Notes under the pieces: model-generated
What the model was told of the DNA's origin: nothing
Database searches by the model: none
Seen by the model: the letters and a program-made list of their open reading frames with translations, nothing else
Assembly: GCA_042570305.1 (NCBI GenBank)
Contig: JBHPGP010000001.1
Coordinates: 828-64,827 of the forward strand
Source of the DNA: Candidatus Omnitrophota bacterium
GTDB lineage: Bacteria > Omnitrophota > Gorgyraeia > Gygaellales > JAHJCI01
Direction of reading: 5' to 3'
DNA length: 64,000 nucleotides
Shown here: positions 1 to 55,029 of the stretch, one piece after another
Position numbering within the stretch: the stretch's first letter is position 1
Layout: every line of letters begins with the position of its first letter
Program-made: the position numbers and the translations under genes

Positions 1-3000
1 GTATGGCATTTGAACCTGTTTCACCCTGAAATAATCCCCATACTTGCTTTATTTCTCCTGTATCCTTATCTATCTCCTGTATTGGCGCAAAGAACTTTGT
101 CTGAGCTGTGTCTAGCTCTGGATGTCCCGCAAGTAAGGTCTTTTGCCCCTCAATATATGCTTCCTTTGCTTCAGAATCCATTTTGTCTTCTAATGTGAAA
201 TATTCTAATGGAGCGCTAAACAGGCGGGGCTGAGAAAGCTGTTCATAGGTGGCTTTCTCAAGTTCTCCTTGCTGATTAAGAACATATGTTGTCTCTCCCA
301 TTATCCGATTAATTGCGTAATCGCCTACCAACTTCTTTGTTCCCAGCCAACCCGCACCTGCTGAGACGCTGCCTAGGGTAGCTCCGGTCCCCCAAGAGAG
401 AGTGCCCTTCAATAAGGTTTGCCCACGAGAAAGCGTTCCAGTAGGACTTGCTGCTGCTGGCTTTAGTGCAAAACGGCTGTTTATCCCTTTCATCGCTGCA
501 CCCAAAGTAAGAAAACCGCCGGCGCTAAAAGTTAACAGCCCTAGATTAGCTAGAACATTTCCTCCGATTGTGCCTTTTAAGCCATCATGGTGTGCTCCAA
601 AATAGTACATAGTTGCACCTGCGCCCATTACGCCTACACCCATTGCCCCCGCCTTTACCGGATTATCCTGAACAAACCTGCTTACTGCTTTTGCATACCT
701 GTTATTTGTAGCGAACTTAGTAACCGGTCTTAAGGCACTAAATGCTGTATTGAAGAGTACTGCTGAAGATGCAACAGAATCAAAATTATAGGCCAATCTA
801 TTTGCGGATTTGCCCAAAGCACTAAAATCTCCACCGCTGCCTAAAAGAGGCATACCTAAAGCAAAGGCTGTATTAATCGCAAGGAACTTTGGTGTAGTTG
901 CTATGGCCTTACCAACAAAGTTCATTGCCTTACCAACACCAGTGAGATTTCCACCAACCAGCGGAAAACCGCCATGGCCAAACTCACCTACCATAACAAA
1001 CCCATTAGAAGATTGTTTTATATGATGCATCCTGGCATGAGATTGTATTCCCTTGCCAACATCTCTAAAACCTGTTCCTGAACCAATTAAACTACCGAAC
1101 AAATAAGCCCATTCTGCAGGGCTGGCAGGCATTATCCCAGCTGCATCAGGGCTACCAGTGGTTATGTCGCGAAGAAGATTACCTAAAGCAAGAAGTTCTT
1201 GTAATGTCTCGGGGTGAAAAGCATTCAATACTAACCCGGGAGAAGCCAGATAAAATTTGGTTAATCCAAAGGCGTAGGAAGAGGCAACTCCAACCCCAAG
1301 TATACTATTGAATGATTGCAAGACTACGCCTGTTTCTATCTGGTCTAATTTCTTCACCCTTTCTCGCAAAGGAGTAATCCCTAAAACCTGCCTGCCGCCG
1401 GCCGTTGCGATATTATTCGCTAGCGACCTGACAAAAGAAGGCTGGTAGTAATCAAATTCATCTACTTTTCCATCTGCATTAATATCTAAATCCTTGTTAT
1501 CTATTATTCCATCCTGGTTAAAATCTTCAGTAGCCACTGTTGGAGGCTTTATTTTTAATGCGTCATATGCAGCATATGGCGTACTCAGGCTATAGTAAGT
1601 AATAAAGGATGTTTTTAATGGATGCTGCATTAACTTTTGCCCTAATCCTGGGAATGCTTTACCTACTAACCAACCTCCAGCATACCCCATTTTGCTCATA
1701 ATCACGTTGGGCGCCTTATAACCAAACCTAAACAAATTCCACGTAAATTTAGGAGGCGCGACCTTAATCGGCGGCGGGGCTGAGTTGGGTTTAAATGGTG
1801 AACGCATAGCTGTAACGCCGCCAAAAACTGCTCCGATTCCAAAGTGGATTAAATCTCCCTGCCAGCCAAGGTTATACTGTTCGGGCAGGCCGAATGAGGT
1901 TAAGTAGGTGCGGGTTGAGCCTGGATTTTCAGGATCCGGTACATCGAGTAGAGGAGTAAGGCGACCTCCGGCAAGACCAACCGTACCATAAAGAAGCGAG
2001 GAACTTCCCACTTTCGCCAGTGTGCCGGAAGTCCCAGCCAACGCAGAACTAAATCTGGGAATAAACTTGAATCCCGCACCTATCGTAACGGCTAAAGCAG
2101 CTCCTGTCCCAAAATCAACCCCTGCCTGTTTCCAGCTGTAGGGCATACCCCGGAATTGGCTATCCAGGTATCCCCTGCCAACGCCTATAGTACCGCCCGT
2201 ACCTGCCATAGCTGCCCATTTAGCGCCTTGATAAACTACTGGATGAGCGCTGGCAAAAGATGCGAGCCTGCTTGAGTGGACAACTGAATTAAGACCCCTG
2301 CTCACAAGGCCTAGCCCCTTAAAGCCGACTGTCATCAATATGCCCGTCATCATAGACTGCATGGCAATTTGTCCGGACTGCTGAGGGGACAGACCTTGCC
2401 CATTACTCATTGCATTGGCCACAAGCAGGTTCACTCCTGTCAAGCCAACGCCGGTTAACAGTGCCCTTGATGACAGGCTGGCCGTCGTTGTCAATATGCT
2501 TGCAGTCCGGGAGGCTGTAGCAGCGGTTGTTGTACCCATTAACCTTAATGCGCCTGTTGCTCCAGCTCCCACAGCACACGTTCCTACAACCAGCGCTACT
2601 GTAGCAAGGTCTCCATAAGTAAAGTGGTTGGTGCTACTTCCTACCGTTGCTGTTCGCGGGTACTTCATTTCCCAGCTCAATCTTGAGAAAACCGGAATGC
2701 CCTCTCCCCATCCAGGCCTTGATTTCATCATATTATCGCGCAGTTTTTGATACGAGGATTTGGGATATGTATAGCCTCCAACAATAGTTCTGGTCTGCTT
2801 TTCGGAAAGCTTGCCTATCTCTATTCCTTTAATCTCCTCTCCGATAAGGAGGAATCCGCTGACTTCAGTAATCAGCGCGATCTTGGGAATAAATTTCTCT
2901 TCTCCCTTTTCCTGATAATAGATGCCGTCTTCGGATATTCCGGTAACATAGACAAAGTGGTCGGAATTAAGGTGTGCAATAAAAGGAATTAATTTATTGG

Positions 3001-3883
3001 TTGGTTGGTTGATGAGCTGACTGGGCAGCAGCTTAACCGGGTAGAGCTTAAGCCCTAATGACTTGGCTACCTCGCTTAATGCAAAAAAGGATGTTTTAAG
3101 CTTGCCTTTTAATTCCTTAATATTGCCGGTAAGCAGGTCAACCAGTATAACCCGCAGGGCTAATTCTTCTAACGTTATATCTATCTTATTGTACTGCAGA
3201 ATGTTATGTAAAGCATAAACGCCACAGTAATTGTCTATCTGGGTTGATGGTTCCCTTAACCATTTGTAAATCTTCTTAATAAGTGGGTAACTAATATAGA
3301 GGCTGTCTGGGCGTAACATGCTTTTACTTAAATAGAACGGCACTCCTCTTGGCCAATAATCAACAAACTTCCGGCCATGTTTGACAATATCCACTATTGT
3401 CTTTGCCGGTGCCTGGCTTTCGGCAATCTCCTTCTCTGACCTGCCATATGATATGGAAAACTCCAGCAGCCTGATTATGCTATTTAAGGATAATTCCATG
3501 CCCTTCATTACCTGAAGGGATATCTGGTCATAATAAGGGTTTAACCACCACGACGGAATATTCTCATTTGGATCCTGCGTTAAGGCATTAGAGTGATTCG
3601 GCGTCGGGGTATCTACTACCAGATTGGAGGCGATCTCAACCCGCTGCAAGGGTTTCTCAGCCAAGAAATCAAGAGAGCGGCGCACGTTCTCGGCAACAAA
3701 ATTAGCCAGATACCCTGTTTGCCCTGAACCAAGATAATAGCGCGGAGCCCAAAGCACGCTGGGATCATAACCCATTGCCCAGGCTGCCTGTTCAGGGACA
3801 AAAACAATCACCACCAACAAGGCAACTGCCCTTATCCAGCGCTTGAATTTTGACTGAGTTTCTTGTTTAATCTCTTCTTTCAT
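1..3883 (-). CDS. Giant membrane-anchored protein, 3' end outside the window (at least 1294 aa). Has an N-terminal signal-anchor, a papain-like/C39-like cysteine peptidase domain, a long Gly/Ala/Thr-rich hydrophobic region and tandem EF-hand-like Ca-binding loops.
   Basis: Absent from the supplied ORF track because it has no stop codon inside the window. Hand translation from the ATG (complement of 3881-3883) gives MKEEIKQETQSKFKRWIRAVALLVVIVFVPEQAAWAMGYDPS... I checked it codon by codon for 3883->2701 and 1561->1441 without a stop. No minus-strand ORF is listed below 3616, consistent with one open frame to base 1. Motifs: NYCGVYALHN (Cys codon 3224-3226) and NSDHFVYV (His codon 2957-2959). 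Confidence 0.8.
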   Translation of the reverse strand, partial: MKEEIKQETQSKFKRWIRAVALLVVIVFVPEQAAWAMGYDPSVLWAPRYYLGSGQTGYLANFVAENVRRSLDFLAEKPLQRVEIASNLVVDTPTPNHSNALTQDPNENIPSWWLNPYYDQISLQVMKGMELSLNSIIRLLEFSISYGRSEKEIAESQAPAKTIVDIVKHGRKFVDYWPRGVPFYLSKSMLRPDSLYISYPLIKKIYKWLREPSTQIDNYCGVYALHNILQYNKIDITLEELALRVILVDLLTGNIKELKGKLKTSFFALSEVAKSLGLKLYPVKLLPSQLINQPTNKLIPFIAHLNSDHFVYVTGISEDGIYYQEKGEEKFIPKIALITEVSGFLLIGEEIKGIEIGKLSEKQTRTIVGGYTYPKSSYQKLRDNMMKSRPGWGEGIPVFSRLSWEMKYPRTATVGSSTNHFTYGDLATVALVVGTCAVGAGATGALRLMGTTTAATASRTASILTTTASLSSRALLTGVGLTGVNLLVANAMSNGQGLSPQQSGQIAMQSMMTGILMTVGFKGLGLVSRGLNSVVHSSRLASFASAHPVVYQGAKWAAMAGTGGTIGVGRGYLDSQFRGMPYSWKQAGVDFGTGAALAVTIGAGFKFIPRFSSALAGTSGTLAKVGSSSLLYGTVGLAGGRLTPLLDVPDPENPGSTRTYLTSFGLPEQYNLGWQGDLIHFGIGAVFGGVTAMRSPFKPNSAPPPIKVAPPKFTWNLFRFGYKAPNVIMSKMGYAGGWLVGKAFPGLGQKLMQHPLKTSFITYYSLSTPYAAYDALKIKPPTVATEDFNQDGIIDNKDLDINADGKVDEFDYYQPSFVRSLANNIATAGGRQVLGITPLRERVKKLDQIETGVVLQSFNSILGVGVASSYAFGLTKFYLASPGLVLNAFHPETLQELLALGNLLRDITTGSPDAAGIMPASPAEWAYLFGSLIGSGTGFRDVGKGIQSHARMHHIKQSSNGFVMVGEFGHGGFPLVGGNLTGVGKAMNFVGKAIATTPKFLAINTAFALGMPLLGSGGDFSALGKSANRLAYNFDSVASSAVLFNTAFSALRPVTKFATNNRYAKAVSRFVQDNPVKAGAMGVGVMGAGATMYYFGAHHDGLKGTIGGNVLANLGLLTFSAGGFLTLGAAMKGINSRFALKPAAASPTGTLSRGQTLLKGTLSWGTGATLGSVSAGAGWLGTKKLVGDYAINRIMGETTYVLNQQGELEKATYEQLSQPRLFSAPLEYFTLEDKMDSEAKEAYIEGQKTLLAGHPELDTAQTKFFAPIQEIDKDTGEIKQVWGLFQGETGSNAI

Positions 3884-4093: not shown

Positions 4094-4957
4094 TTAAAAC
4101 TTAAGGAATCCGCCACGCGTAAACTGAATTAATATTGGCCCGGCCACAACTATCATAACCACCGGCAAAATAAATAACAGCAAAGGCGCTAAAAGTTTTA
4201 TCGGCGCCTTTAATGCCATTTCCTCGCCTTTTTGAAACCGGCGCATTCTTATCTCTTCTGACTGCATCTTTAATGTTTCTCCAATTGGAGTTCCCATACG
4301 GTCTGCCTGCAGCAGGGTGCGCACAAAAGAAATCATCTCCGGGCTGTTTATCCGGTTGGCCAAATTCTTTAATGAGTCGCGGCGGGAGCCTCCCATCTTT
4401 ATCTCGTGAATCAAAACCTTAAGCTCATCAACCAGGACGCAGGAACGGAACCCCTCAACCACGCGATTGACTGCCATCATAAAATCTAACCCGGCTCCTA
4501 CGCAAATATTTAAGAGGTCGATAATGTGCGGCAAGTCCTTTAAAACCGCAGCCTGCCTTTTCTTTATTTTACTGTTAATCCACAGGTCCGGGACAAAGTA
4601 GCCAACGCACAAAGCCAAAATGAGCATAAGCGGTTCTGGACGGAATATAATGAATACCACAAAAGGCACAGATGCCATCGCCGAAAATTTAATCGCCAGG
4701 AATTGAGCAGCCTTCATCGGCCTGCCTGCGGAGACCAACTTTCTCCTCAAGTTCTCCATAGGAATATGGACTCTTTCCAGTAAGCGTTCAGTAATCTGCG
4801 TAGGAAAACTCAAGATGCTCCTGAATCCAGATGCAGAATGCGCATCTTTAATCTCTTCCGGCAGGTGCAATCCGCCAGCCAGGCTGCGGGAGGAGAACTG
4901 ATAAGCCAGCAACCCGATACTGGAAAAGAGAAATGCGGAAATAAGCAATAGTTCCAT
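4094..4957 (-). CDS. tadC: Tad pilus inner-membrane platform protein TadC (T2SS F-family domain)
   Basis: 287 aa with TM segments and a T2SSF-type core (GLDFMMAVNRV...MGGSRRDSLKNLANR...LLQADRMGTPIGETL...). Directly follows tadB. Confidence 0.85.
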   Translation of the reverse strand: MELLLISAFLFSSIGLLAYQFSSRSLAGGLHLPEEIKDAHSASGFRSILSFPTQITERLLERVHIPMENLRRKLVSAGRPMKAAQFLAIKFSAMASVPFVVFIIFRPEPLMLILALCVGYFVPDLWINSKIKKRQAAVLKDLPHIIDLLNICVGAGLDFMMAVNRVVEGFRSCVLVDELKVLIHEIKMGGSRRDSLKNLANRINSPEMISFVRTLLQADRMGTPIGETLKMQSEEIRMRRFQKGEEMALKAPIKLLAPLLLFILPVVMIVVAGPILIQFTRGGFLKF

Positions 4958-4959
4958 AT

Positions 4960-5811
4960 TTACACCTCAACCCGGCTTAGTTTCTTGATTAAGATTACTC
5001 CGATTATTTCCGAAGCAACTGCCCACATCAGCAAGCCTTGTCCGAGTTTATCCTGCAGCATTATCTTAAAATTTTCCGGATTAACAAAATAGATAAAAAT
5101 TCCGAAGGCAATGGGCAATAAGCCCATAATTACTCCCTGCAGCCTGCCCTGGACTGTCAATGCTTTTACCCGGTCTTCCAGCTTCTTTTTCTCTCTTATG
5201 GTGGACACCAACTGGCTAAATATCTCGGTCAGGTTTCCTCCCGTCTCCCGGGAAATTCCGATAGCAGTGGTGATTAAATCCAGGTCATCCACAGGCATGC
5301 GTTTCTTAAGATGGGCCAGGCACTCCTCCAGGGCCACTCCCATTTGATTCTCTCTCATTACCAGGGAGAACTCATCGCTAATCGGTGGCGGCAATTCCTC
5401 TGCCAGCACCTCAAAGGACTGGTTTAAACTCATGCCTGCCTTAAGCGAACTGGAAAGAAGCATCAGCCCGTCAACCAGCTGGCTGCTGAATTGATTTCGC
5501 CTGCGCCCAGAAATAGTCCTGATGATTGTCGGCGGTGCGGCCAAACCAAGAAGCAATCCCGCAATAAAACCAATGGGATTGCGCATAAGAATCAGCCCGA
5601 GCAATCCCAGGCTTAATGGTACAATCATAAATATTTGAAATAGCTTGCGTTTCTCCGTGAAGATAAACATCCTGTCCAGCTGTTTGGTTACCTCGTGCAT
5701 GCGTATTTCTTGAATCTGAGAATAACGCTTCAGCAAAAGCGGAATTAGCTTAAAGGCTAAAAATACAACCGAGGCAAAGGTTAATAGAAAAATAATGCTT
5801 TTTAATACCAT
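4960..5811 (-). CDS. tadB: Tad pilus inner-membrane platform protein TadB (T2SS F-family domain)
   Basis: 283 aa. T2SSF-like core (LKAGMSLNQSFEVLAEE...AIGISRETGGNLTEIFSQL) with TM helices at both ends. Confidence 0.85.
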   Translation of the reverse strand: MVLKSIIFLLTFASVVFLAFKLIPLLLKRYSQIQEIRMHEVTKQLDRMFIFTEKRKLFQIFMIVPLSLGLLGLILMRNPIGFIAGLLLGLAAPPTIIRTISGRRRNQFSSQLVDGLMLLSSSLKAGMSLNQSFEVLAEELPPPISDEFSLVMRENQMGVALEECLAHLKKRMPVDDLDLITTAIGISRETGGNLTEIFSQLVSTIREKKKLEDRVKALTVQGRLQGVIMGLLPIAFGIFIYFVNPENFKIMLQDKLGQGLLMWAVASEIIGVILIKKLSRVEV

Positions 5812-6014
5812 TATCTCTCCCAGACTAAAGGTTTATCACCACGGGGCAGCTCGTATTGCCGGCCAAAACCAAAGACATCGGCTGATTGGCGCCAACGGCT
5901 ACATACTGCCCGTTTAATATATATCTGGATTCCCAATAACATAGCAATAACTACTGCTAACAACACAGTATATTCAATAAACGAAATCGCTTTTAAGTGT
6001 TTGCTTTTCATCAT
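5811..6014 (-). CDS. Flp-like pilin/pseudopilin (divergent, A instead of G before the xxxxEY motif)
   Basis: 67 aa. N-terminus MMKSKHLKAISFIEYTVLLAVVIAMLLGIQIYIKRAV shares the IEY + hydrophobic helix + Q.YIKR motif with the upstream pilin array. Confidence 0.6.
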   Translation of the reverse strand: MMKSKHLKAISFIEYTVLLAVVIAMLLGIQIYIKRAVCSRWRQSADVFGFGRQYELPRGDKPLVWER

Positions 6015-6015
6015 C

Positions 6016-8196
6016 TTACCTGTGCCTTTTCTTTATATAAATATCCTTGGTCCTTTTAGCAGCTTCGCCAGGAAGCTCATCGGGTTTATAAGTATACCCC
6101 GGCCCGTAATGAAAGGTTGCCTTGGCAACTATCCCGTGGTTCATGGCCAAATTCACCAATCTGGCCCTTGGCGTATTCGGGTCAGAAGGGTTGCCATACG
6201 CAAGTAATTGCTCCAGCGTTGTTGCGTCTCCGTTATTAAGAAAAGCCATGAATCTGTCGGCAGTAGGCCGCAACAGGTTTGTTACATCTGCGTTTTCAGC
6301 AAGCGCCGCATTACGGCGGAATCTGAATCTCCAGAAATTACTCAACGGGCCACGCTTGGCTAAATCCTCATCATAGCGGGCAACTGTAAGGTCAAATTCC
6401 TCCTCTGCCCATTCTATCCTCTGACAAATCCTGAATCCCCAGTTACGGCGCTTCACTGTAAGATAGGGCAATTTAAAATCTTGCGGCACATCTAATCTAA
6501 CATAAACCATATGCGCGGGGCTTTCTTTCTGTACTGTATTGCTAAACTCGTCCAAAACTACATCCTTCCAAACATAAATAGCCTCGTGAACCCATGGCTC
6601 GTCTTTCCTGCTTGCTGCCTCAAGGGCTACCTCGTTAATCCTTGTGCGAAGGCTCTCAATACTTTCTTGCATTAGTTGAAGGCGCGCGATAAAGGGCGGA
6701 ATGATAGTATTGCGATTACTATCATTGTTACAACCACAGTTATAATAGTTATCGCAAGCTGCCGATGCACAGATGCCGCCACCGGAACAATACCGCCCCA
6801 TGGCGCAATTCTGAATATAGAGAGGGCAAGCGCTGCTGCAACATCCCCTTACACCGCCGGTAGGGGTATTGCAGCTATTCTCAACCAAACAACTCGATGA
6901 ACAAAGCTGACAACAGCCCCTGCCGCCGCCGCAGCCAGCGTAAGCATCACACACGCACCACCATGAATATTCATCGTATTCCACGTGCCCGGCGCAACAA
7001 CCTCCGCCGCCCGGACCGCATGTCCAGGGGCCGGGAGACGAACAGCTGTTTACGCATGCAAGTATCTCGTTTTGCCTTTGCGCTAATTGAGCAATCCAGC
7101 CTTGCAACATTGCTTCCCACTCCAGCATATGGTCATACCAATCCTTGAAGTCATCGGTCGGCGCTTTCAGATCATCAAACTGATTCATCCAAGTCTCAAA
7201 ACTGCCAACGAGATCTTCCTTGCTGGTATTATAAATACCCTTGGCAAATATCTCAAAAAGTCTTATGTCTCTGTAAAACTGGCCCAGTTCGTCATTCTCG
7301 TAGTCGCCATTATCCGGGTCCGCAGGATCAAAGAAAGTCAAATCTTTTGTGTAATCATCCGCAAACTCAACTCCGTAGCCATGGCTCCATAACCGCACAA
7401 TAAAGGATTTAAATTCGCCTGCCAGCCAATCAGTTATTCTCCAGTTTCCATTTACCAACAAATGAACGCTATGAGCATCCCCGGTCTGGGGAACCGGCAC
7501 AATATGAAATTGAGGGCTGCCAAATAGGTATTCATAAAAATCGTCAACGAGGTCTCCTATGCGCGGCAATGAATCCAGTCTCTGGAAATACCAGTGGTTA
7601 AACCGGGAAATCTTATCTAATGTGCCGGGGAATTTATTTCCGTCTCTGTCCGCATCAAATCTATCCGGCACCAAGTCCTGGTCAGTGACCGTAGCAAAAA
7701 GCGCAAATTGAATTGCTGCCTCTGTAAGCCTCTGTTCGGTAGACATATTCTGAAATTTCTCTTTCAATGCCTGAACCAGCTGGGGGTCAATATGGGCTGC
7801 GCTAATACCTTCGGAGACTAAAAACCCGCCCGTAGCCCCTCCCATGACCAGTCCGAGTGCCACCTGGGCAATCAATGGTCCGGTAATTGCGCTTGCGGTA
7901 GCAAGGGTACAAATTGTTACTACGATTGAGGCAATAATTATTAAACATCCTATAATCAATGACCAATTAAACTCGCAAGATTCAATACTATCGCCCCACA
8001 TTTCCATCTGCTGCTTTATCCCTGTAGCCATACTGCCCAGCCCCGAGGCAAGCAAAAGACCTGCTCCGTCACAGGCATTATCAATGGCTGTCTTTTTCTG
8101 GGCTATCTGACCTATATTTATAGTAACCACAATAAACAGGAATATGGCTGCGATGGCTAAAGTGATTATAGTCGCAATCTGCGCCCTTTTTGCCAT
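6016..8196 (-). CDS. TadG-like pilus-associated protein with an internal Cys-rich module
   Basis: 726 aa. The N-terminus (AQIATIITLAIAAIFLFIVVTINIGQIAQKKTAIDNACDGAGLLLAS) resembles the TadE/G-like 'Tad' N-terminal domain. 22 Cys occur within 109 residues, encoded at 6730-7056. Confidence 0.65.
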   Translation of the reverse strand: MAKRAQIATIITLAIAAIFLFIVVTINIGQIAQKKTAIDNACDGAGLLLASGLGSMATGIKQQMEMWGDSIESCEFNWSLIIGCLIIIASIVVTICTLATASAITGPLIAQVALGLVMGGATGGFLVSEGISAAHIDPQLVQALKEKFQNMSTEQRLTEAAIQFALFATVTDQDLVPDRFDADRDGNKFPGTLDKISRFNHWYFQRLDSLPRIGDLVDDFYEYLFGSPQFHIVPVPQTGDAHSVHLLVNGNWRITDWLAGEFKSFIVRLWSHGYGVEFADDYTKDLTFFDPADPDNGDYENDELGQFYRDIRLFEIFAKGIYNTSKEDLVGSFETWMNQFDDLKAPTDDFKDWYDHMLEWEAMLQGWIAQLAQRQNEILACVNSCSSPGPWTCGPGGGGCCAGHVEYDEYSWWCVCDAYAGCGGGRGCCQLCSSSCLVENSCNTPTGGVRGCCSSACPLYIQNCAMGRYCSGGGICASAACDNYYNCGCNNDSNRNTIIPPFIARLQLMQESIESLRTRINEVALEAASRKDEPWVHEAIYVWKDVVLDEFSNTVQKESPAHMVYVRLDVPQDFKLPYLTVKRRNWGFRICQRIEWAEEEFDLTVARYDEDLAKRGPLSNFWRFRFRRNAALAENADVTNLLRPTADRFMAFLNNGDATTLEQLLAYGNPSDPNTPRARLVNLAMNHGIVAKATFHYGPGYTYKPDELPGEAAKRTKDIYIKKRHR

Positions 8197-8450
8197 TATT
8201 CATATCCTCCTTGATGGAAAACATTCAAATCAGGCTGGCGTCTATAACAACTACCGTCTTTGCAATAGAAATTTGATTTACCCGGGTCGTTTTTGCTGGT
8301 TGCAACCTCACGGGTGTCTTCGTACGCCATTTGGCGCTTCACTATATTATGATTAATCCAGACAAACAGGTTGCAGGTCAAGATAAGGAATAATATCGTG
8401 CAAACAAACGCAACGCTAAACTCAATGCTTGCCTGGGCCCTGGAGTTCAT
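8196..8450 (-). CDS. TadE-like minor pilin
   Basis: MNSRAQASIEFSVAFVCTILFLILT... is a TadE-type N-terminus. The ATG at 8448-8450 overlaps the upstream stop (ATGA), so I prefer it to the track start at 8465. Confidence 0.6.
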   Translation of the reverse strand: MNSRAQASIEFSVAFVCTILFLILTCNLFVWINHNIVKRQMAYEDTREVATSKNDPGKSNFYCKDGSCYRRQPDLNVFHQGGYE

Positions 8451-9619
8451 TTTCTTGCCTCCCAAGTAAATTTCTCGTTATCCGGACTGAATTCAGTGGT
8501 GGTATGAACAGGGTCTATTATTAACCCATAAGCAGGGTTAACTCTAGACCAGCCATTGGGTTTATTTAATCTTATTATGTGCGTAGCCCTCTGCCTTGCG
8601 TATACATTGGTGAATGAGGATATCGTACTGTCGTCTTCTGTTTTAGTCAAGTAATTATTCCTATTTTCTTTAACCAGGGTGTAAGCATTAAGCAGGCCCT
8701 GTTGCTCATCGAGCAATTCCCCGTCAAAATCCCGGTCCTTATCGTGCTCCCAGGTGCTAACCGCAAGATATCTATTATCCAGCTCGCCCTCCTGATAATC
8801 TACATATTTAAAACTCTGTATTCTGCCGCAGTAACCATTTGCATCGCAATCCCCGGTTCCCTCCTGAGTGCCCCTCACGGCAATGATCATTTCCTGCTGC
8901 CCGTCATAGTCAAGGTCAGCAGAGGATATTTTATGCTTTGGCTTCCCTGCCCCCTCTCTGAAATAGGCAAATTTTTTGTCAGGTTCTTCATCCGGGCTTG
9001 TGCGGTTTTGCACAAAGATTTGGTTGCAGGCTACCCAGCGCTCTTTAAATTGTTCTAAATCTGCGGCTCTTTCAACAGGAGTTTTTTCAAAAACCACCAT
9101 TATTGAACCACCGCAGACGGATTCGCGGTAATCCGCTGTTGTAAATGCGCCGTGGCTATAATTAATCCCTTCAATTGCCCCATCTGCCAGCTCTCTATCA
9201 GTTAAGCCTAAGGTATCGTTAATCTCGATTATTTGCAGCGGAAGATCAGAATCTACGGGGATTTCGTCATAATCGTCTATATAAAGTGCATTTGTGTTGC
9301 TGTCCCAGGTTACTGCTCCTCCGCCGCTTATTGGCGTGCGGTCAGCAAAACCCCAGGGGTCATTAGGATCGGGTATGCCTTTATCCTTTATGGTTGTCAT
9401 AGAAACGGTTGCGCCGGGTCCGGATTTATAAAAAGCCGTTTTCATTGCCTTGCGGAAAGACTGCATGACAGTATTTTGCTGATAATTTGCATGCATGCCG
9501 TATTGCAAAAGCATAGCCAGGCACAACAGCAGTATTGACCCGAAAGAAGCCAACTCCACCAATGATTGTCCCTTTTTATTATTCAAATAATTCATCCGGA
9601 AACTCCCCAAGCGTTTCAC
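8447..9619 (-). CDS. Large pseudopilin/TadE-TadF-like protein
   Basis: 390 aa. N-terminus ...NNKKGQSLVELASFGSILLLCLAMLL is a pilin-like leader plus hydrophobic helix, followed by a ~340-aa soluble domain. The start is uncertain: an internal Met sits at 9595, and the track start overlaps the upstream gene by 41 nt. Confidence 0.55.
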   Translation of the reverse strand: MKRLGSFRMNYLNNKKGQSLVELASFGSILLLCLAMLLQYGMHANYQQNTVMQSFRKAMKTAFYKSGPGATVSMTTIKDKGIPDPNDPWGFADRTPISGGGAVTWDSNTNALYIDDYDEIPVDSDLPLQIIEINDTLGLTDRELADGAIEGINYSHGAFTTADYRESVCGGSIMVVFEKTPVERAADLEQFKERWVACNQIFVQNRTSPDEEPDKKFAYFREGAGKPKHKISSADLDYDGQQEMIIAVRGTQEGTGDCDANGYCGRIQSFKYVDYQEGELDNRYLAVSTWEHDKDRDFDGELLDEQQGLLNAYTLVKENRNNYLTKTEDDSTISSFTNVYARQRATHIIRLNKPNGWSRVNPAYGLIIDPVHTTTEFSPDNEKFTWEARK

Positions 9620-9932
9620 TGCTTACTCTGCGTAGTCTTTCATTTCCCGTTACAGAGGTTGTTCTGATTCCAAAAATCTTTCCCTCTTCTGCCAGCTGGG
9701 GCGCTGAAACCTCTACCTGCCGCGATATGGTTGTGGTTGTCCCAGACTGAAAAATACTCATTACGGAATTAATATGGCCAGCATCGTATTGCCCGCCTAT
9801 TGTATCAGCCGCCTCTCGCAGCCTTCCCTGTGCGGCTCGCTTTACATAATGCTGCATAAGCAGCAGGGCAGCAGATAAGCAGACCACAAGCATGGTATAT
9901 TCAATAATTGACTGTGCTTTTTTATTTCGCAT
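9579..9932 (-). CDS. Extended Flp-like pilin paralogue
   Basis: MRNKKAQSIIEYTMLVVCLSAALLLMQHYVKRAAQGRL... has a Flp-type xxxxEY N-terminus and the shared MQxYVKRxxQGR motif. Confidence 0.65.
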   Translation of the reverse strand: MRNKKAQSIIEYTMLVVCLSAALLLMQHYVKRAAQGRLREAADTIGGQYDAGHINSVMSIFQSGTTTTISRQVEVSAPQLAEEGKIFGIRTTSVTGNERLRRVSSETLGEFPDELFE

Positions 9933-9934
9933 AT

Positions 9935-10408
9935 TTAATAGCTGTGTTCAGGCGTGTTTGGCCGAGTAACCTGGTCGTATTCCATTTTCTGAAAAGCTTC
10001 ATTATTCCTAATCATAACGCGTGTATTTTCATCAATGCGTGAAAAATGCCTGCCTTTCGTCCAGTTTCTTGTTAAGTTAGTATTGTCGAAATTGCTTAAG
10101 CTCATGGAAGGGATAGGAGGACCAAACTCCTCATCCACATTATCCTCTATGCCTATTTCCTGAATGCGCTGGGCACGAAGCTCACTTTTCCTTGCCGTTA
10201 CTTCCGAGACACTCAATCCCGGTCCAAAAGTCATATTCTCGATATAATCAGGTATAAAGCCAAACATTCCTAAGTTATCCACCGGCTCTTTTATCACTAC
10301 CTGAACCCCGCGCTGGATATAAAGGTTGATTGCCAGCAGCAGGGAGCTAATCACCCCTATAACAATCGCGTATTCAGAAACATTTTGAGCTCTCTTGTTA
10401 CTAATCAT
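9935..10408 (-). CDS. Extended Flp-like pilin paralogue
   Basis: MISNKRAQNVSEYAIVIGVISSLLLAINLYIQRGVQ... with a 157-aa body. Confidence 0.6.
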   Translation of the reverse strand: MISNKRAQNVSEYAIVIGVISSLLLAINLYIQRGVQVVIKEPVDNLGMFGFIPDYIENMTFGPGLSVSEVTARKSELRAQRIQEIGIEDNVDEEFGPPIPSMSLSNFDNTNLTRNWTKGRHFSRIDENTRVMIRNNEAFQKMEYDQVTRPNTPEHSY

Positions 10409-10754
10409 AACAATCTATCTCCTGGATACTGAGGCCGCCCCTGACGCTTTCGCCAGCAAAGTCGTCAAGCGAGCCGGAAAAAGCTATTCGTTGCCGTCCG
10501 TCCGTGTTTACCACAACATCAATTTCTCTGCCCTGTTCGGCTTTGGAATACTCGTGAACATAGTATGGCTCGTACTGGGTTATTGGCCGGGCGGAAGAGG
10601 GAGAGACCTGCCGGGCTGTTCGATCTACTAAATCAGCGTAACGACCCTGCAGGCCTCTCTTGACATATGACTGTATGGTTATCATCGCAAGTATAATTAC
10701 AGCCACGCAAATGGTGTATTCACTAACGCTTTGTCCTCTTCTCGGTATTCTCAT
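10401..10754 (-). CDS. Extended Flp-like pilin paralogue
   Basis: MRIPRRGQSVSEYTICVAVIILAMITIQSYVKRGLQGR... It shares the QYEPYYV motif with the 11126-11500 product. Confidence 0.65.
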   Translation of the reverse strand: MRIPRRGQSVSEYTICVAVIILAMITIQSYVKRGLQGRYADLVDRTARQVSPSSARPITQYEPYYVHEYSKAEQGREIDVVVNTDGRQRIAFSGSLDDFAGESVRGGLSIQEIDCYD

Positions 10755-10787
10755 AATCGCCTTAACAAGGGTTGCTGGTTTAAGCTT

Positions 10788-11105
10788 TTACTTGCTATAC
10801 AAATCCTCGTCCTCTGCCCATGCCTCAACAGATTCTGAGCCTGTTCTTGAGCTTACCTGAGCAGCCGTATGTTCTGTCCTGCCCACGCGGTCATGTACAG
10901 ATTGCTCAACCTCTGACGACTGAGTGATTGAAAAATTGCCCGTATAAACAGTCGGGTCATACTGGTCACCCATATCATCAGAAGCGCTTTTTAATCTGCC
11001 GGCAAAACCGCGTCTTACATAGTGCTGCATAAGCAAAAGACCAGCCACCACCACAGCAATAATTAAGGCATATTCTAATGTACTCTGGCCCTTACGGTTA
11101 AACAT
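10788..11105 (-). CDS. Extended Flp-like pilin paralogue
   Basis: MFNRKGQSTLEYALIIAVVVAGLLLMQHYVRRGFAGRL... A GGAGG Shine-Dalgarno sits upstream. The 5' end is identical to that of 11126-11500. Confidence 0.7.
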   Translation of the reverse strand: MFNRKGQSTLEYALIIAVVVAGLLLMQHYVRRGFAGRLKSASDDMGDQYDPTVYTGNFSITQSSEVEQSVHDRVGRTEHTAAQVSSRTGSESVEAWAEDEDLYSK

Positions 11106-11125
11106 TTCTTTTCACCTCCTCAATA

Positions 11126-11500
11126 TTAGCGGCCCGAATCATAATCGTCTCTGTGATAATCATCATCCCATGTTGTCTCATCATAGGCTCCGACCTGACG
11201 TGTTGTCGACTCGGCAATAGCTGTACGATCCGTTTCACCGCGCGCTGCAATGTCTTCTGTGAGGCTCCTGCTGCTTCCAACAGTACCTTCTGAATCAACG
11301 TAGTATGGCTCGTACTGCTTGGTAGTAAACTCTATATTTGCTCCTCCTAAAACTCCTGGTGTTGGAGCATGGTCAACAGCATCTGCTACTCTACCCTGAA
11401 GACCCCTTTTTACGTAAACCTGCATTGCCACTGCTGCGGCAATTACCAACGCAATAAGTATTGAATACTCCGCAATATTCTGGCCCTTACGGTTAAACAT
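11126..11500 (-). CDS. Extended Flp-like pilin paralogue
   Basis: MFNRKGQNIAEYSILIALVIAAAVAMQVYVKRGLQGRV... with a GGAGG Shine-Dalgarno. Confidence 0.7.
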   Translation of the reverse strand: MFNRKGQNIAEYSILIALVIAAAVAMQVYVKRGLQGRVADAVDHAPTPGVLGGANIEFTTKQYEPYYVDSEGTVGSSRSLTEDIAARGETDRTAIAESTTRQVGAYDETTWDDDYHRDDYDSGR

Positions 11501-11527
11501 TTCTTTTCACCTCCTCATTTAAAGATT

Positions 11528-11698
11528 TCAATCTGGCAACCTGCCAGCTGCGCCTTCAATAGACCCTTTAGATTCCGTGAAGACTGTGTCTACTGCGGTC
11601 GGAAGAAACGTCCTTGCCGCAACGACAACTGCAGCTATAATTGCCGTTAACACAATCACATACTCCAACACGCTCTGGCCCTTTTTTTTCCTGCGCAT
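11528..11698 (-). CDS. flp: Classical short Flp pilin (56 aa), below the ORF-track cutoff
   Basis: Hand translation gives MRRKKKGQSVLEYVIVLTAIIAAVVVAARTFLPTAVDTVFTESKGSIEGAAGRLPD*. ATG is the complement of 11696-11698 and the stop is at 11528-11530. GGAGG lies about 10 nt upstream. It carries the G/xxxxEY Flp processing motif. Confidence 0.75.
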   Translation of the reverse strand: MRRKKKGQSVLEYVIVLTAIIAAVVVAARTFLPTAVDTVFTESKGSIEGAAGRLPD

Positions 11699-11740
11699 AT
11701 CCATTCACCTCCTTTCGCTTTCCGATCTTAATATATATAA

Positions 11741-11887
11741 TTATTGCGGCTCAGCATTAATCTGGTCCTGAATCAGTTTAAAATTCGCCTGCACTGCTCG
11801 CTGTACATAGAGATGCATGGCCAGGAATGCCGCTGCCACAATAGTAATTAGTAATGCGTATTCAATTGTGCTCTGCGCTCTTCTCAT
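11741..11887 (-). CDS. Short Flp-like pilin (48 aa), below the ORF-track cutoff
   Basis: Hand translation gives MRRAQSTIEYALLITIVAAAFLAMHLYVQRAVQANFKLIQDQINAEPQ*. Its ATG overlaps the stop of the upstream gene (ATGA at 11884-11887). Confidence 0.65.
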   Translation of the reverse strand: MRRAQSTIEYALLITIVAAAFLAMHLYVQRAVQANFKLIQDQINAEPQ

Positions 11888-12090
11888 CTTAGCATATCGT
11901 CGACTGCTTGGTCAAAGGCATCATTGCAAATCTCTTTTATGCCCGGACGCTCACCGGGTCCGGGATTCGGATTGGTAAAGAATTTGCTTTTAGTAAAAAA
12001 CAAAACGATTGCCACTACGGAAATCGTTAATATACAATACTCGAATATTGACTGACCATGAATACTTTTATTAATCTTTTTAAAAGTCAT
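11884..12090 (-). CDS. Flp-like pilin, first gene of the pilin array
   Basis: MTFKKINKSIHGQSIFEYCILTISVVAIVLFF... has a G-QSxxEY motif. GGGAG lies upstream of the ATG. Confidence 0.6.
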   Translation of the reverse strand: MTFKKINKSIHGQSIFEYCILTISVVAIVLFFTKSKFFTNPNPGPGERPGIKEICNDAFDQAVDDMLR

Positions 12091-12227
12091 TATTAACTCC
12101 CAAATAAAAAACCGGCGCTACCGTTTCGGCAGCCCGGTTACAACATAAATTCCACAATAATTTTTCCCGTGGCTTTGCTATCCCCTTGTCTTGCTTAAGG
12201 GAACAACCCTTGTCGTTCGGCAGTTAA
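12091..12227 (-). promoter_or_regulatory. Structured ~135-nt leader of the pilin operon ending in a terminator-like hairpin plus U-run (possible riboswitch or attenuator)
   Basis: The minus-strand RNA contains an AAGGG-UUGUU-CCCUU hairpin (12197-12211). It also contains GGGGAUAGCAAAGCCACGGG (GCAAAGCC at 12171-12178), similar to the 3991-4000 core. A CCGGGCUGCCGAAACGGUAGCGCCGG hairpin (12112-12137) is followed by UUUUUU (12106-12111), about 15 nt before the GGGAG SD and ATG. Confidence 0.5.
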
Positions 12228-12256
12228 AGTATAACATAGGTGCAAGATGCTGTCAA
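12228..12256 (-). promoter_or_regulatory. Sigma70-type promoter of the pilin operon
   Basis: On the minus strand, TTGACA (12251-12256), a 17-nt spacer, then TATACT (12228-12233). Confidence 0.7.
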
Positions 12257-12287
12257 GCTCAAAATTAGGGGCATAGAAAGCGTTTTC

Positions 12288-13169
12288 TTAGGGCAGGTTT
12301 TTTGGCAAAATTTCCAATTTTGCATCCACCAGAACCAGTTCTTTTTCCGGACTGAATACTCGCAGGCTGTTTATCTTTTCAGCGGCATACAACAAATCCT
12401 CATGCCAGACAGCGTCATTCATCCAAGGAGAATGCTCAGGACAGAAGAATTGAACCTCTAAAAGGCCGTCTGTTTTCTTGAAATTTGCCCATAATGCATA
12501 GAAACGCTCCTGCATAGCAGGCAAACCCAGGTATTGGTATGAATGAGGAAAGAAATTTGTCTGAGCATAGGAGCTTAATTCTAAAAGGCATTCTTTATGT
12601 AACTCATTGATTTTGTTAATGTTATGGCTAAAATTAGCTCTCATTAAAGCATTATTTATCGCAGCAATTTTAATGTTTGCTAATTGCTGCAAATACTGGC
12701 TTATGCAGCCAGGAGACACTTCTTTGCCAGTAAACAGCCAAAGGCTTTTCTTATCTTTAAAAAAGGGCATATAGAGTGCGGTTTCGATTAGTGTTTGCAG
12801 GTCCTGCTCAGACCAGCCAGGAAAATAAGCAAAAAGGCCATTTGCGAGAATAGAGGTCAAGCTGAGCTGAAAATCAGCTATTTTTAAGAAAATAATGCCG
12901 CCGTACTCAATAAACACCCTTTCTTTACTGATCAATTTTATCTCAGCCGGAGCACTAAAAGCAGCCTGTTGTTTCCTGCTTCTTCTTCCTACTGGACTGC
13001 TTAAATTACTCTGTTTAATTACGCTATTTATTAATGATTTTGACAGGCTTACCTGGAATTTCTCCCTAATCAGCGGAATTAATCTTCTGCAGGATAATTC
13101 CGGACTAGCCTTCTTTTTCTCAATAATAAAGTCCTTAATTACGTTACTTAACTTGTAAGAACTGGTCAT
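12288..13169 (-). CDS. Hypothetical protein with an N-terminal helix-turn-helix-like segment
   Basis: 293 aa. The N-terminus (SPELSCRRLIPLIREKFQVSLSKSLINSVIKQSNLSSPVGRRSRK) looks like an HTH followed by a basic linker. I recognise no family for the rest. Confidence 0.35.
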   Translation of the reverse strand: MTSSYKLSNVIKDFIIEKKKASPELSCRRLIPLIREKFQVSLSKSLINSVIKQSNLSSPVGRRSRKQQAAFSAPAEIKLISKERVFIEYGGIIFLKIADFQLSLTSILANGLFAYFPGWSEQDLQTLIETALYMPFFKDKKSLWLFTGKEVSPGCISQYLQQLANIKIAAINNALMRANFSHNINKINELHKECLLELSSYAQTNFFPHSYQYLGLPAMQERFYALWANFKKTDGLLEVQFFCPEHSPWMNDAVWHEDLLYAAEKINSLRVFSPEKELVLVDAKLEILPKNLP

Positions 13170-13173
13170 TTTA

Positions 13174-13217
13174 ATTTGGACATTGATTTGGACATTGATT
13201 TATTAAATTGGACATTA
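13174..13217. repeat. Three direct copies of an ATTTGGACATTG-like motif between a candidate promoter and the 12288-13169 start codon
   Basis: ATTTGGACATTG at 13174-13185 and 13186-13197 (tandem), and AATTGGACATTA at 13206-13217. On the minus strand a TTGACA lies upstream. Confidence 0.7.
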
Positions 13218-13276
13218 ACTATAGATATAGATTAACTTATTTATTATAATTTGTCAAGTGTAATTTAAACTATATC

Positions 13277-13618
13277 TTATATAATAGTGATAATATCGCC
13301 TATTTTGGTTTGGCTTGATTTGAGCATTCCTTCAGGAAGCTCTATAGTCAAACTTGCGTTAAAATAGATGGGGCTGACCCTGAAAGGCTTTAATGAAGGA
13401 AGAACAGCAATTACCCTGCCTTTATTGTCCAGGAAGATAGCATCTATAGCAAAACGCATAAACAGCGTGTGAATAGAGTTTGAGGGCTTAAGAACCAGGG
13501 CTTCCCCTGTTTCCAGGGACTGGCGATTAAGCAATCCAACCAGCCTCCCCCAAAATGTATGCGCAATCTTTACCCTATCAGCAAGAATGGCATTATTTCT
13601 TAAATTAGTAATCTTCAT
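13277..13618 (-). CDS. DUF192 family protein
   Basis: 113 aa. ADRVKIAHTFWGRLVGLLNR...NSIHTLFMRFAIDAIFLDNKGRVI matches the DUF192 pattern as I remember it. Confidence 0.65.
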   Translation of the reverse strand: MKITNLRNNAILADRVKIAHTFWGRLVGLLNRQSLETGEALVLKPSNSIHTLFMRFAIDAIFLDNKGRVIAVLPSLKPFRVSPIYFNASLTIELPEGMLKSSQTKIGDIITII

Positions 13619-13627
13619 CTTATAAGC

Positions 13628-17485: not shown

Positions 17486-17507
17486 CTGAAATTTGCCAGG
17501 CGTTGTT

Positions 17508-19679: not shown

Positions 19680-19681
19680 AT

Positions 19682-21316: not shown

Positions 21317-22257
21317 TTTTCTTCTTCGGATAATGGCATAAAGCCTCTTTCCAATCCGCGATATACTTCAATCATTGTCTGTGGTCCTGTCGCGCGAGGC
21401 TCTGCTTTCCTGACAGGACGCGTAGGATATAGATATCGAAACAACGCATCCCAATCTGCTGTTTCAACCGGCTCTATACCAACATCATCCGATGAACGAA
21501 TAACCAATTTAATCTTTCCCTGTTCCTGGACAAAAGAAAGCAGAATGGATTCCTGTGGCGCCAGGGCAAGAGTAGCGGTGCGCATGCCAACACCTGACTT
21601 CCTCGACTTATCTTGCGTATCCTCCTGGCCGAAACTGGAAGTGGTATAAAATTCGCTGCCAACTGCCAATACCTCAACCCCTTGAAAAAGCGACACCAAG
21701 CGAGGCTTCTGACTATCCTCACCTAATCCCCCCACCCCAGAAGGCGGCGTGAGCAATGCCAGGACATCAACAAAATCTCCGGGCTTAAGCAAGCCGGATA
21801 CAGTAGAAGCACTGTCTACCGTAACAGTTACTGCCCTTTTGCCTTCGGGAGTAATCTCGGATAATGTTTTTCCTATTCTGCCTGGGGGTAGCAATTTTGT
21901 TTTAAGTATCTGTTCTCCCGCGGCAATTGGCGTAGATGAAATTTGACCGATCACTGCATCAAGAGAAGTAATCGCTCCTGGCTGGATATATTTAACCGGC
22001 ATCTCCTTGATTACGAGGTCCTCGGGGGTGACCGGAGTCTGCGGAGCAATATTAGTCGCTGCCAGCAGCACTATCCCGGTTCTCTCCGGCTGCGCCTGAA
22101 CAGCCGGCTGCATTTTTTTCTGGATCTCTTTTACCCTCGCCCACATTTCAGCTTCCCTGCGGCGCAGGTAAACATTAAGCAACAATATAGCTATAATTCC
22201 GCAGACTACAGCAATAATTAACGGAGACTTTTCACGTAATTTTTCCTTCAGCTGCAT
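21313..22257 (-). CDS. cpaB: Flp pilus assembly protein CpaB/RcpC
   Basis: 314 aa with an N-terminal TM helix. SAF-like segment ITPEDLVIKEMPVKYIQPGAITSLDAVIGQ...AGEQIL and RcpC-like segment KRAVTVTVD...LKPGDFVDVLA. Confidence 0.8.
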   Translation of the reverse strand: MQLKEKLREKSPLIIAVVCGIIAILLLNVYLRRREAEMWARVKEIQKKMQPAVQAQPERTGIVLLAATNIAPQTPVTPEDLVIKEMPVKYIQPGAITSLDAVIGQISSTPIAAGEQILKTKLLPPGRIGKTLSEITPEGKRAVTVTVDSASTVSGLLKPGDFVDVLALLTPPSGVGGLGEDSQKPRLVSLFQGVEVLAVGSEFYTTSSFGQEDTQDKSRKSGVGMRTATLALAPQESILLSFVQEQGKIKLVIRSSDDVGIEPVETADWDALFRYLYPTRPVRKAEPRATGPQTMIEVYRGLERGFMPLSEEEK

Positions 22258-23169: not shown

Positions 23170-23206
23170 GTGTTTTCCTCCTGTTTTATTCTTTTCTTTT
23201 AAACAT

Positions 23207-23234
23207 ATTATCACAAATAAAAAAATGAAGTCAA
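23207..23234 (-). promoter_or_regulatory. Sigma70-type promoter (extended -10) for the PPIase-cpaB-cpaC... operon
   Basis: On the minus strand, TTGACT (23229-23234), a 16-nt spacer, then TGtGATAAT (-10 at 23207-23212). Confidence 0.55.
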
Positions 23235-24607: not shown

Positions 24608-24609
24608 AG

Positions 24610-26109: not shown

Positions 26110-26112
26110 AAT

Positions 26113-48879: not shown

Positions 48880-48886
48880 CGTATAT

Positions 48887-49090: not shown

Positions 49091-49107
49091 AACTCGATTG
49101 AGGGATC

Positions 49108-55027: not shown

Positions 55028-55029
55028 CC

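Follow-up and report, generated by a model that had tools for sequence, protein, structure and literature searches.

Among the systems described so far, the closest to the gene analysed here are the giant proteins of Omnitrophota ('Archaeovorins' and relatives). The available text of West-Roberts et al. (2023, bioRxiv 10.1101/2023.11.21.568195), where the length criterion for a giant gene is at least 7,000 aa / 20 kb, describes these genes as encoding an N-terminal signal peptide and a C39 domain, and as being preceded by a cluster resembling the Tad and type II secretion systems (T2SS), whose named members are gspD, gspE, gspF, rcpC, a Rotamase_2 peptidyl-prolyl isomerase (PPIase) and class III signal genes. 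In the available part of a 2026 preprint (bioRxiv 10.64898/2026.06.07.730766), the PF03412 group is the largest domain-architecture cluster among long Omnitrophota proteins. The gene in question occupies the first 3,883 positions, on the minus strand, of a 64,000-nucleotide stretch from a Candidatus Omnitrophota bacterium (GenBank assembly GCA_042570305.1, contig JBHPGP010000001.1, positions 828 to 64,827 of the forward strand; this whole stretch is called the window below). It shares with the class, as far as the available descriptions go, the phylum, the order of a signal-like segment and then C39, a long Pfam-less region, many hydrophobic segments and the same preceding cluster. It differs in being known for only 1,294 aa (1,570 in the public record); the SecA_DEAD-like, glycosyl hydrolase and other downstream domains of the class would lie past the contig end.

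We are nearly certain that the object is the N-terminus of an Omnitrophota giant gene and, as the class is already published, the window gene represents a further member of it, not a new kind. What may be new is an invariant N-terminal motif and a double-glycine site in cis, behind the C39 domain; neither was found in the searched literature on Omnitrophota giant proteins, insofar as its text was available. Our analysis showed that the conserved first ~370 residues make up a module of anchor helix, variable insert, C39 domain and double-glycine leader-type motif. The explanation of the whole that we favour on balance is a giant-gene N-terminus whose C39 module would cleave its own chain after G370. 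The features of this module, in window coordinates, are:

1..3883, minus strand, 5' part of the giant open reading frame (ORF), codons 1-1294; no stop, identical to a record of 1,570 aa that is partial at a contig end
3749..3838, minus strand, conserved N-terminal signal-anchor motif WIRAVALLVVIVFVPEQAAWAMGYDPSVLW, residues 16-45 (AlphaFold2 (AF2), hydropathy, conservation)
3290..3601, minus strand, variable helical insert between anchor and peptidase, residues ~95-198 (homologue comparison, AF2)
2840..3289, minus strand, C39 (double-glycine) cysteine peptidase domain, residues 199-348 (Pfam, PDB profile, AF2/Foldseek)
3224..3226, minus strand, codon of catalytic Cys220, within NYCGVYALHNIL; aligned with the nucleophilic Cys of LahT150
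2957..2959, minus strand, codon of catalytic His309, within IAHLNSDHFVYV; aligned with the catalytic His of LahT150 and PCAT1
2909..2911, minus strand, codon of Glu325, at the catalytic Asp position; aligned with the Asp of the LahT150 motif ...INDP...
2774..2809, minus strand, double-glycine leader-type motif L359-S-E-K-Q-T-R-T-I367-V-G369-G370, followed by Y371; proposed self-cleavage site after G370 (family conservation, position-specific scoring matrix (PSSM))

The C39 domain and the double-glycine motif behind it

The earlier note on this DNA had recognised a C39-type peptidase by its Cys and His and had asked for Pfam (PF03412) and AlphaFold checks; both confirmed a C39 peptidase domain. 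Residues 218-322 scored 33.5 bits (E 4.3e-8) with the PF03412 (Peptidase_C39) model, whose cut-off is 22, the scores in homologues being 30-42 bits. A phmmer search of the PDB with the single sequence (residues 1-428) gave no match, and the profile of the family (A2, an alignment of 14 family N-termini used for both the PDB search and AF2) retrieved LahT150 (6mpz) at E 2.7e-7 and also PCAT1, the alignment to 6mpz stopping at about residue 350. The AF2 model based on A2 reached a predicted local distance difference test (pLDDT) score of 86-95 over the domain (residues 200-350), and a Foldseek comparison of this domain with the PDB placed 6mpz first (E 1.6e-6, template modelling (TM) score 0.72 on target), followed by 7n87, the PCAT1 peptidase domains and 3b79, with 7sgr also among the matches.

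The Cys and His columns are invariant in 77 of 77 relatives (sequences from species-representative genomes), and the acid column holds Asp in 61 and Glu in 12 of them (73/77), Glu replacing Asp in the window protein. At Cys-5 the window protein has Q215, where the family column is mostly His or Asn, and N218 is kept in 73/77; the role of the proposed oxyanion-hole Gln upstream of the Cys has itself been questioned for LahT (PMC6363468). Judging from the conserved residues and the modelled fold, the domain is very probably an active C39 peptidase. It looks catalytically competent by its residues, and is not a Cys-less C39-like domain (CLD) of the HlyB type, which resembles it in having a C39 fold tied to very large secreted or surface proteins and differs in being non-cleaving and without the catalytic Cys, whereas the triad is conserved in the giant family. 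Neither is it part of a peptidase-containing ATP-binding cassette (ABC) transporter (PCAT), since no ABC_membrane or ABC_tran match was obtained in the 1,570 aa of the protein or in relatives of up to 4,101 aa.

Past the point where the crystallised C39 fold ends, 12 residues behind the domain, lies a motif with the family consensus L359-S-x-x-Q/E-x-x-x-I-x-G369-G370. Except at position -7, it matches the consensus of classical double-glycine leaders, L(-12)-S-x-x-E(-8)-L(-7)-x-x-I(-4)-x-G(-2)-G(-1). The occupancy of the individual positions among 98 cluster representatives, in the register of such leaders, is as follows:

Position 359 (-12): L/V/I/M in 98/98
Position 360 (-11): S/T in 54/98
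Position 361 (-10): D/E in 68/98
Position 363 (-8): E in 58/98
Position 364 (-7): A in 51/98
Position 367 (-4): I/V in 98/98
Position 369 (-2): G in 98/98; 4.32 bits, the highest of the region
Position 370 (-1): A52 S14 G12 N8 D8; A/S/G in 78/98

From position 371 onward the alignment of these representatives collapses into gaps. In a pattern test the motif was present in 185 of 192 unique sequences, located 56-77 aa past the catalytic His (56-65 in all but three), and five of the seven exceptions have near-variants. A particular subfamily (P0017, P0133, P0152 and P0154; P numbers denote representative proteins from the profile search and L numbers related loci) has ~550 aa between the N-terminal motif and the first C39 domain, and one or two more C39 copies, with Cys and His retained, at about residues 1,550-2,000. 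In these proteins the first C39 copy, although ~600 aa from the N-terminus, has I-[RK]-G-[AS] behind it, and the motif therefore tracks the C39 domain and not the N-terminus; behind the later copies stands another sequence, rich in Pro. No leader or sorting-signal model of NCBIfam or Pfam matched the double-glycine linker, even at E <= 10.

The AF2 model folds residues 361-366 (-10 to -5) as a helix and residues 368-370 (-3 to -1) as an extended stretch, with pLDDT ~89. In the co-crystal of LahT147 with a leader, residues -4 to -11 form a two-turn helix, -4, -7 and -12 occupy a hydrophobic groove, and -1 to -3 are bound extended (PMC6363468). The predicted conformation of the motif matches that of the bound leader.

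The same motif bears on the suggestion, made in the available text of West-Roberts et al., that the C39 domain dices the giant into many polypeptides at multiple internal sites. The two or three internal C39 copies of some relatives would fit such a scheme. On the other hand, a PSSM scan of 406,512 aa from family proteins of at least 1,500 aa, covering the first 1.5-7.8 thousand residues of each, detected 106 sites at 16 bits or above, all within the first 700 residues and none later (shuffled sequence, 0), one site per protein and a single match in the window protein. With no second match in that range we consider dicing quite improbable, internal sites that follow another pattern being conceivable.

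Proposed self-cleavage and the points against it

The membrane anchor noticed earlier at the N-terminus is borne out by the hydrophobicity of residues 16-36 (the signal-anchor proper, nt 3776-3838), with a hydropathy peak at residues 19-37, and by a single helix at residues 15-36 of the AF2 model. W16, F28, P30, Q32, A36 and Y39 are invariant in 77/77 relatives and W35 and P41 nearly so, position 18 being R/K and position 31 E/D throughout, which gives the consensus W-x-[RK]...F-x-P-[ED]-Q-x-[SA]-W-A...Y-[ND]-P. The conservation of residues 16-45 is far above the level usual for a signal peptide, and no sorting-signal or leader model of Pfam or NCBIfam matched this motif, even at E <= 10. On the fuller, tentative reading given below, the W-x-R...F-x-P-E-Q-x-S-W-A...Y-N-P segment would be a dedicated targeting signal of the giant-protein system. 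The K/R ahead of the helix and the E/D behind it predict an N-in/C-out topology, and the A-W-A/M junction appears compatible with a signal peptidase I site. The insert that follows (residues ~95-198), modelled by AF2 as helical with low to medium confidence, is present in P0003, P0005 and P0010 and missing from most homologues.

We propose that the N-terminal helix is inserted N-in, placing the peptidase on the periplasmic side, where the C39 domain would bind the motif in its own chain, in the manner of a PCAT peptidase with its leader, and would cut after G369-G370, in cis or between neighbouring copies. Such a cut would detach the anchor-plus-peptidase module (~370 aa) from the giant polytopic body, with Y371 as the new N-terminus, so that the leader would carry its own leader peptidase. 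It would represent a maturation or release step, probably linked to the neighbouring Tad-like machine; its purpose, speculatively, might be to free the N-terminus of the body for handling by the Tad/T2SS-like machine or to release the body from the anchor. For own-chain cleavage at the double-glycine motif, as suggested by conservation and the model, we see the case as evenly poised. The fuller proposal, that the first ~370 residues are a self-removing leader with a periplasm-facing C39 domain mounted on its cargo, with one cut at the PCAT-type motif 12 residues behind the domain and a possible hand-over to the Tad-like machine, is offered tentatively, at somewhat less than an even chance.

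The C39 domains of PCAT/AMS transporters (LahT150, 6mpz; PCAT1, 4ry2; ComA) are among the closest known systems. The fold, the Cys/His/acid arrangement and the motif register (-12 and -4 hydrophobic, -8 Glu, -2 Gly, -1 small) are the same. The window domain differs from them in its Glu as the acid and in having the substrate-like motif in its own chain, C-terminal to the enzyme. The following points weigh against the proposal. Position -7, hydrophobic in classical leaders, is mostly Ala in the family and Thr in the window protein, and about 31% of the family members in the pattern test set have Asn or Asp at position -1, which is unusual for C39 substrates; the site of the window protein scores only 13.0 bits in the PSSM. 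Known C39 domains are cytoplasmic and fused to ABC transporters, whereas the present one is predicted on the periplasmic side, and Pfam/NCBIfam scans found no ABC transporter in the giant protein or in its cluster. The topology is predicted from hydropathy and charge rules, the proposed processing from sequence and a predicted structure, and the downstream remainder of the gene is cut off by the contig end.

The Asn/Asp residues at -1, which may be poorly cleavable, would also suit a domain that binds without cutting, the motif acting as a docked pseudo-substrate (a tether or autoinhibitor) and the module remaining attached to the giant protein. C39-like domains with a chaperone or tether role do exist: the HlyB CLD, cited in the available text of West-Roberts et al., holds unfolded substrate, and 7sgr and 3b79 are among the fold matches listed above. 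However, the known non-catalytic C39-like domains have lost the Cys, which together with the His is retained in every one of the 77 relatives here, and the conservation of the triad across at least 133 species argues for catalysis. A non-cutting role is in our view unlikely.

Self-cleavage of the proposed kind would have parallels in other large proteins. In Pseudomonas, the periplasmic cysteine protease LapG frees the giant adhesin LapA by a cut near its N-terminus. The likeness lies in a giant surface protein, a periplasmic thiol protease, a single cut at a dipeptide of small residues near the N-terminus and c-di-GMP (cyclic di-GMP) genes nearby; the difference is that LapG is a separate bacterial transglutaminase-like cysteine proteinase acting in trans, and that LapA is exported by a type I system and does not lie beside a Tad cluster. 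The large toxins MARTX and TcdA/TcdB contain an autoprocessing cysteine protease domain (CPD; family C80), which is activated inside the host cell by inositol hexakisphosphate (InsP6) or GTP. N-terminal 'releasing peptidases' are also known in polymorphic toxins (Zhang et al. 2012, PMC3482391), and the principle would be the same as the one proposed here: a very large protein, secreted or on the surface, contains a peptidase that cleaves the chain it is part of and frees the rest. The C80 domains and releasing peptidases differ in belonging to other peptidase families and in having no double-glycine motif, and activation in a host cell is not indicated for the giants.

The gene, its family and the Gly-rich body

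The earlier note held that the frame starting with the ATG at 3883 reaches base 1 without closing and that the true protein is longer than 1,294 aa. Both statements were borne out, and all of the sequence strings it quoted were found where it had placed them. The frame runs for 1,294 codons without a stop (the translation begins MKEEIKQ), and it is absent from the ORF listing because it exits the window end. A public record of the same protein (100% identity), annotated 'cysteine peptidase family C39 domain-containing protein, partial [Candidatus Omnitrophota bacterium]', has 1,570 aa; it sits on an 81,168-bp contig of a Candidatus Omnitrophota metagenome-assembled genome (MAG) and ends at the contig end. 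As this record is partial, the gene is cut by the contig end as well, 276 codons beyond the window. A scan of metagenome contigs found no relative or longer copy for the last 301 aa of the record.

The truncation, together with earlier stops in 4 of 78 related loci, might be taken to mean that the frame is not a functional gene at all, and is instead a chance ORF, a pseudogene or an assembly chimera. An open frame of this length has a chance probability of ~1e-33, computed from the base composition of the stretch; the closest relative (P0016/L001), which comes from another sample, shares 49% identity over 1,562 aa, and there are hundreds of homologues with invariant catalytic residues and conserved synteny. 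We give this reading next to no credence, and the conservation data effectively refute it.

A scan found the N-terminal module in at least 133 species genomes, nearly all of them Omnitrophota, and an exhaustive profile search returned 1,234 cluster representatives (208 at E <= 1e-30) with lengths of up to 7,820 aa, most of these relatives being truncated as well. The ORF reaches the end of the available DNA without a stop in 74 of 78 related loci, and it exceeds 3,600 aa wherever 10 kb are available. The other four ORFs with the same N-terminal module (L021, L024, L054 and L067) end early, at 1,035, 1,000, 566 and 527 aa, and could reflect true short forms, frameshifts or faults of the assembly. 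Of 49 related loci, 47 have TadB/TadC homologues upstream in the same orientation. Several loci (L002, L007, L010, L064 and others) come from MAGs labelled Dehalococcoidia, Deltaproteobacteria, Elusimicrobia or 'Planctomycetales'; since the distribution is otherwise exclusively Omnitrophota, mis-binning or mislabelling of the contigs is a likelier cause than transfer.

Behind the module, the protein consists of the following features:

1694..2686, minus strand, Gly/Ala/Ser/Thr-rich hydrophobic region, residues 400-730, with candidate membrane helices 426-444, 474-492, 510-528 and 587-609 (composition, hydropathy)
1451..1525, minus strand, two adjacent Ca-binding loops of EF-hand/dockerin type, DFNQDGIIDNKD-L-DINADGKVDEFD, residues 787-798 and 800-811 (motif match)
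1..1696, minus strand, conserved body module, residues ~730-1294 in the window (to ~1570 in the record) (recurrence in other giants)

The Gly/Ala/Thr/Ser-rich and partly hydrophobic character that had been ascribed to the body holds: G+A+S+T make up 41-54% of the 100-residue blocks 401-700 and 901-1200, versus 18-27% in the first 400 residues. The region of residues 400-730 is conserved with P0016, P0015 and P0002. Further candidate helices lie within the body module (857-879, 1000-1018, 1078-1096, 1110-1128 and 1162-1180, and 1473-1505 in the record), so that simple hydropathy scales give ~11 helix-length, weakly hydrophobic, Gly-rich segments in 1,570 aa, the N-terminal helix included. By these scales the body resembles a polytopic membrane region, which agrees with the 'numerous transmembrane regions' reported for the class. 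The previous remark that no family could be recognised is correct insofar as the body is without a Pfam or NCBIfam match, and it missed the described class of Omnitrophota giant genes. Beyond C39, no Pfam or NCBIfam family was matched in the window protein, P0016 (2,618 aa) or P0018 (4,101 aa), and the only domains beyond C39 in P0002-P0004 and P0006 were TPR (plus a sub-threshold HemY_N) and DnaJ. SecA_DEAD (PF07517) gave no match at E <= 0.01 in P0002, P0003, P0004 and P0006, nor at E <= 0.001 in P0016 and P0018; Walker-A-like strings seen by eye in P0002-P0004 and P0006 were not counted as evidence.

An AF2 model of the body module (residues 730-1570, six sequences) was unusable, with a mean pLDDT of 41.6. 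The module was also found in P0021 (775-1537), P0125 (2706-3451) and L030 (2915-3633), as well as in P0148 and P0079, its alignment (A3) containing 65 invariant columns. It spans ~800 aa, recurs 0.8 to 2.9 thousand residues from the N-terminus of these giants and terminates in a strongly conserved E-R-x-F-F-x-x-T-F-A-A-F-W-D-D motif. Its differing positions suggest that the giants are built from shuffled large modules. After the hydrophobic body, P0006 has a DnaJ J-domain (residues 958-1010) and P0002 and P0004 have TPR repeats, which hints that the stretch past the membrane region is cytoplasmic in these three proteins.

The two back-to-back Ca loops reported earlier at 1451-1525 are present exactly there, and were overweighted as a feature of the protein: the pair occurs only in the window protein and its closest relative, and we rejected it as a family feature. 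Each loop fits D-x-N-x-D-G-x-[IV]-D-x-x-D, with a single residue between the two. Such spacing is unlike that of a dockerin or an EF-hand pair, and nearer to that of thrombospondin type 3 repeats. Dockerin_1 remained below threshold (E 0.01, 16.5 bits against a cut-off of 22.9), as did FG-GAP, and EF-hand models gave E >= 0.5. The pattern D.[DN].[DN]G..[DN]..[DE] hit four entries in a set of 232 family proteins and is not explained as a chance product of composition: the window protein (two copies), P0016 and L001 (the same relative, with the pair DFNGDGKIDNED...DANEDGVITIDE and a five-residue spacer) and P0149, a single unrelated loop match. By their sequence the loops are a real, small, lineage-specific feature; given four helices between them and the C39 domain, their location is probably extracytoplasmic, and they would then be a lineage-specific extracytoplasmic decoration.

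The Tad-like cluster and its surroundings

Our analysis further showed that the giant gene is the last gene of, or lies directly after, a Tad/type II-like pilus-secretion cluster. This cluster (4094-23214, minus strand) holds, gene for gene, all of the components named in the available text of West-Roberts et al.:

4094-4957, minus strand, TadC-like platform protein (Pfam T2SSF)
4960-5811, minus strand, TadB-like platform protein (Pfam T2SSF)
6016-8196, minus strand, TadG-like protein (Pfam Tad, weak)
8196-12090, minus strand, about nine small Flp/TadE-type prepilin genes with class III signals (G/QSxxEY) (Pfam Class_IIIsignal, weak; ORF translations)
13277-13618, minus strand, DUF192 (Pfam/NCBIfam)
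13628-17683, minus strand, GH3 + PIG-L protein, 1,351 aa (Pfam/NCBIfam)
17508-19679, minus strand, TadZ-TadA fusion ATPase, 723 aa (Pfam/NCBIfam)
19682-21316, minus strand, secretin with a C-terminal TonB_C (Pfam/NCBIfam)
21313-22257, minus strand, RcpC/CpaB (Pfam/NCBIfam)
22258-23214, minus strand, Rotamase_2 PPIase (Pfam/NCBIfam)

The T2SSF matches of the two platform proteins have E-values of 9e-15 and 6.5e-18. With the Tad (type IVc) pilus the cluster shares RcpC/CpaB, an RcpA-type secretin, TadZ and TadA domains, TadB, TadC, a TadG-like protein and Flp-type prepilins. It differs in two unusual fusions, the secretin with TonB_C and the TadZ-TadA protein, which has a TadZ-like ParA/MinD ATPase and a TadA/T2SSE ATPase in one ORF, in the inserted GH3/PIG-L enzyme, and in the lack of an encoded A24 prepilin peptidase (TadV/CpaA), none being found among the cluster ORFs of at least 80 aa or among the ORFs scanned in the rest of the window. 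Either the gene for the prepilin peptidase lies elsewhere, or pilin processing takes another route. We rejected the C39 domain as a stand-in for it: the prepilins have K/R-G or K/R-A before QSxxEY and no double-glycine register, and the orientation contradicts it too, the prepilin leaders facing the cytoplasm and the C39 domain being predicted outside.

The same neighbours bear on the role that the earlier note had considered for the C39 domain, namely the processing of partner proteins. In this explanation the domain would act in trans on separate proteins or peptides that carry Gly-Gly leaders, for instance secreted effectors or the adjacent pilins, much as the C39 domains of PCAT/AMS transporters cut separate substrates; the available text of West-Roberts et al. 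likewise leaves open that the domains 'may cleave other protein substrates'. However, the small neighbours bear Flp-type class III signals ([KR]-G/QSxxEY; N-termini such as MFNRKGQSTLEYALII, e.g. MFNRKG/QSTLEY in the ORF translations) and not L-S-x-x-E-L-x-x-I-x-G-G leaders, and these signals face the cytoplasm. The cluster contains no bacteriocin-like ORF or ABC exporter, and the sole conserved motif resembling a double-glycine leader that was found is the one in the protein's own chain. The proposal of partner processing was therefore probably mis-aimed, and we hold action in trans to be improbable; processing of the own chain at G370 remains the explanation that we prefer.

The 1,351-aa protein of the cluster joins a GH3 beta-N-acetylhexosaminidase-like domain to two stretches of PIG-L-type de-N-acetylase, and these domains suit the role in breaking down cell-wall sugars that has been proposed. 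As its automatically called TTG start lies 176 nt inside the upstream ATPase gene, the true start is probably further downstream. The operon at 23405-27039 (plus strand), divergent from the Tad cluster, codes for a FIST sensor, a GAF histidine kinase and a response regulator whose GGDEF domain is partial, and might feed c-di-GMP signals into the cluster; conserved PilZ genes downstream of giant genes are described in the available text of West-Roberts et al. (2023, bioRxiv 10.1101/2023.11.21.568195). The chromosomal replication origin region lies at 47365-57474, with yidC (47365-48879, minus strand), dnaA (49656-51026, plus strand), dnaN, dciA, gyrB and gyrA, and the cumulative GC skew has its minimum at ~46-48 kb of the window. 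The Tad cluster and the start of the giant gene are ~45 kb from dnaA, and their transcription is co-directional with replication. In V. archaeovorus a Tad complex is located at 12-30 kb of a genome that also has a 39,678-aa ORF, according to the available part of Seymour et al. (2023, PMC10066038).

The giant proteins of the ultra-small Omnitrophota, which are tens of thousands of residues long, rank with the largest proteins predicted anywhere and are thought to serve predation or attachment. The cis double-glycine site turns the general idea that C39 might cleave the giant into a specific prediction, a Cys220/His309-dependent cut after G-[GAS], and the invariant N-terminal motif provides a handle for finding the machinery that recognises these proteins. 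If true, self-cleavage would define the first maturation step of the giant proteins, and a C39 double-glycine peptidase would for the first time be seen to process its own chain outside an ABC transporter.

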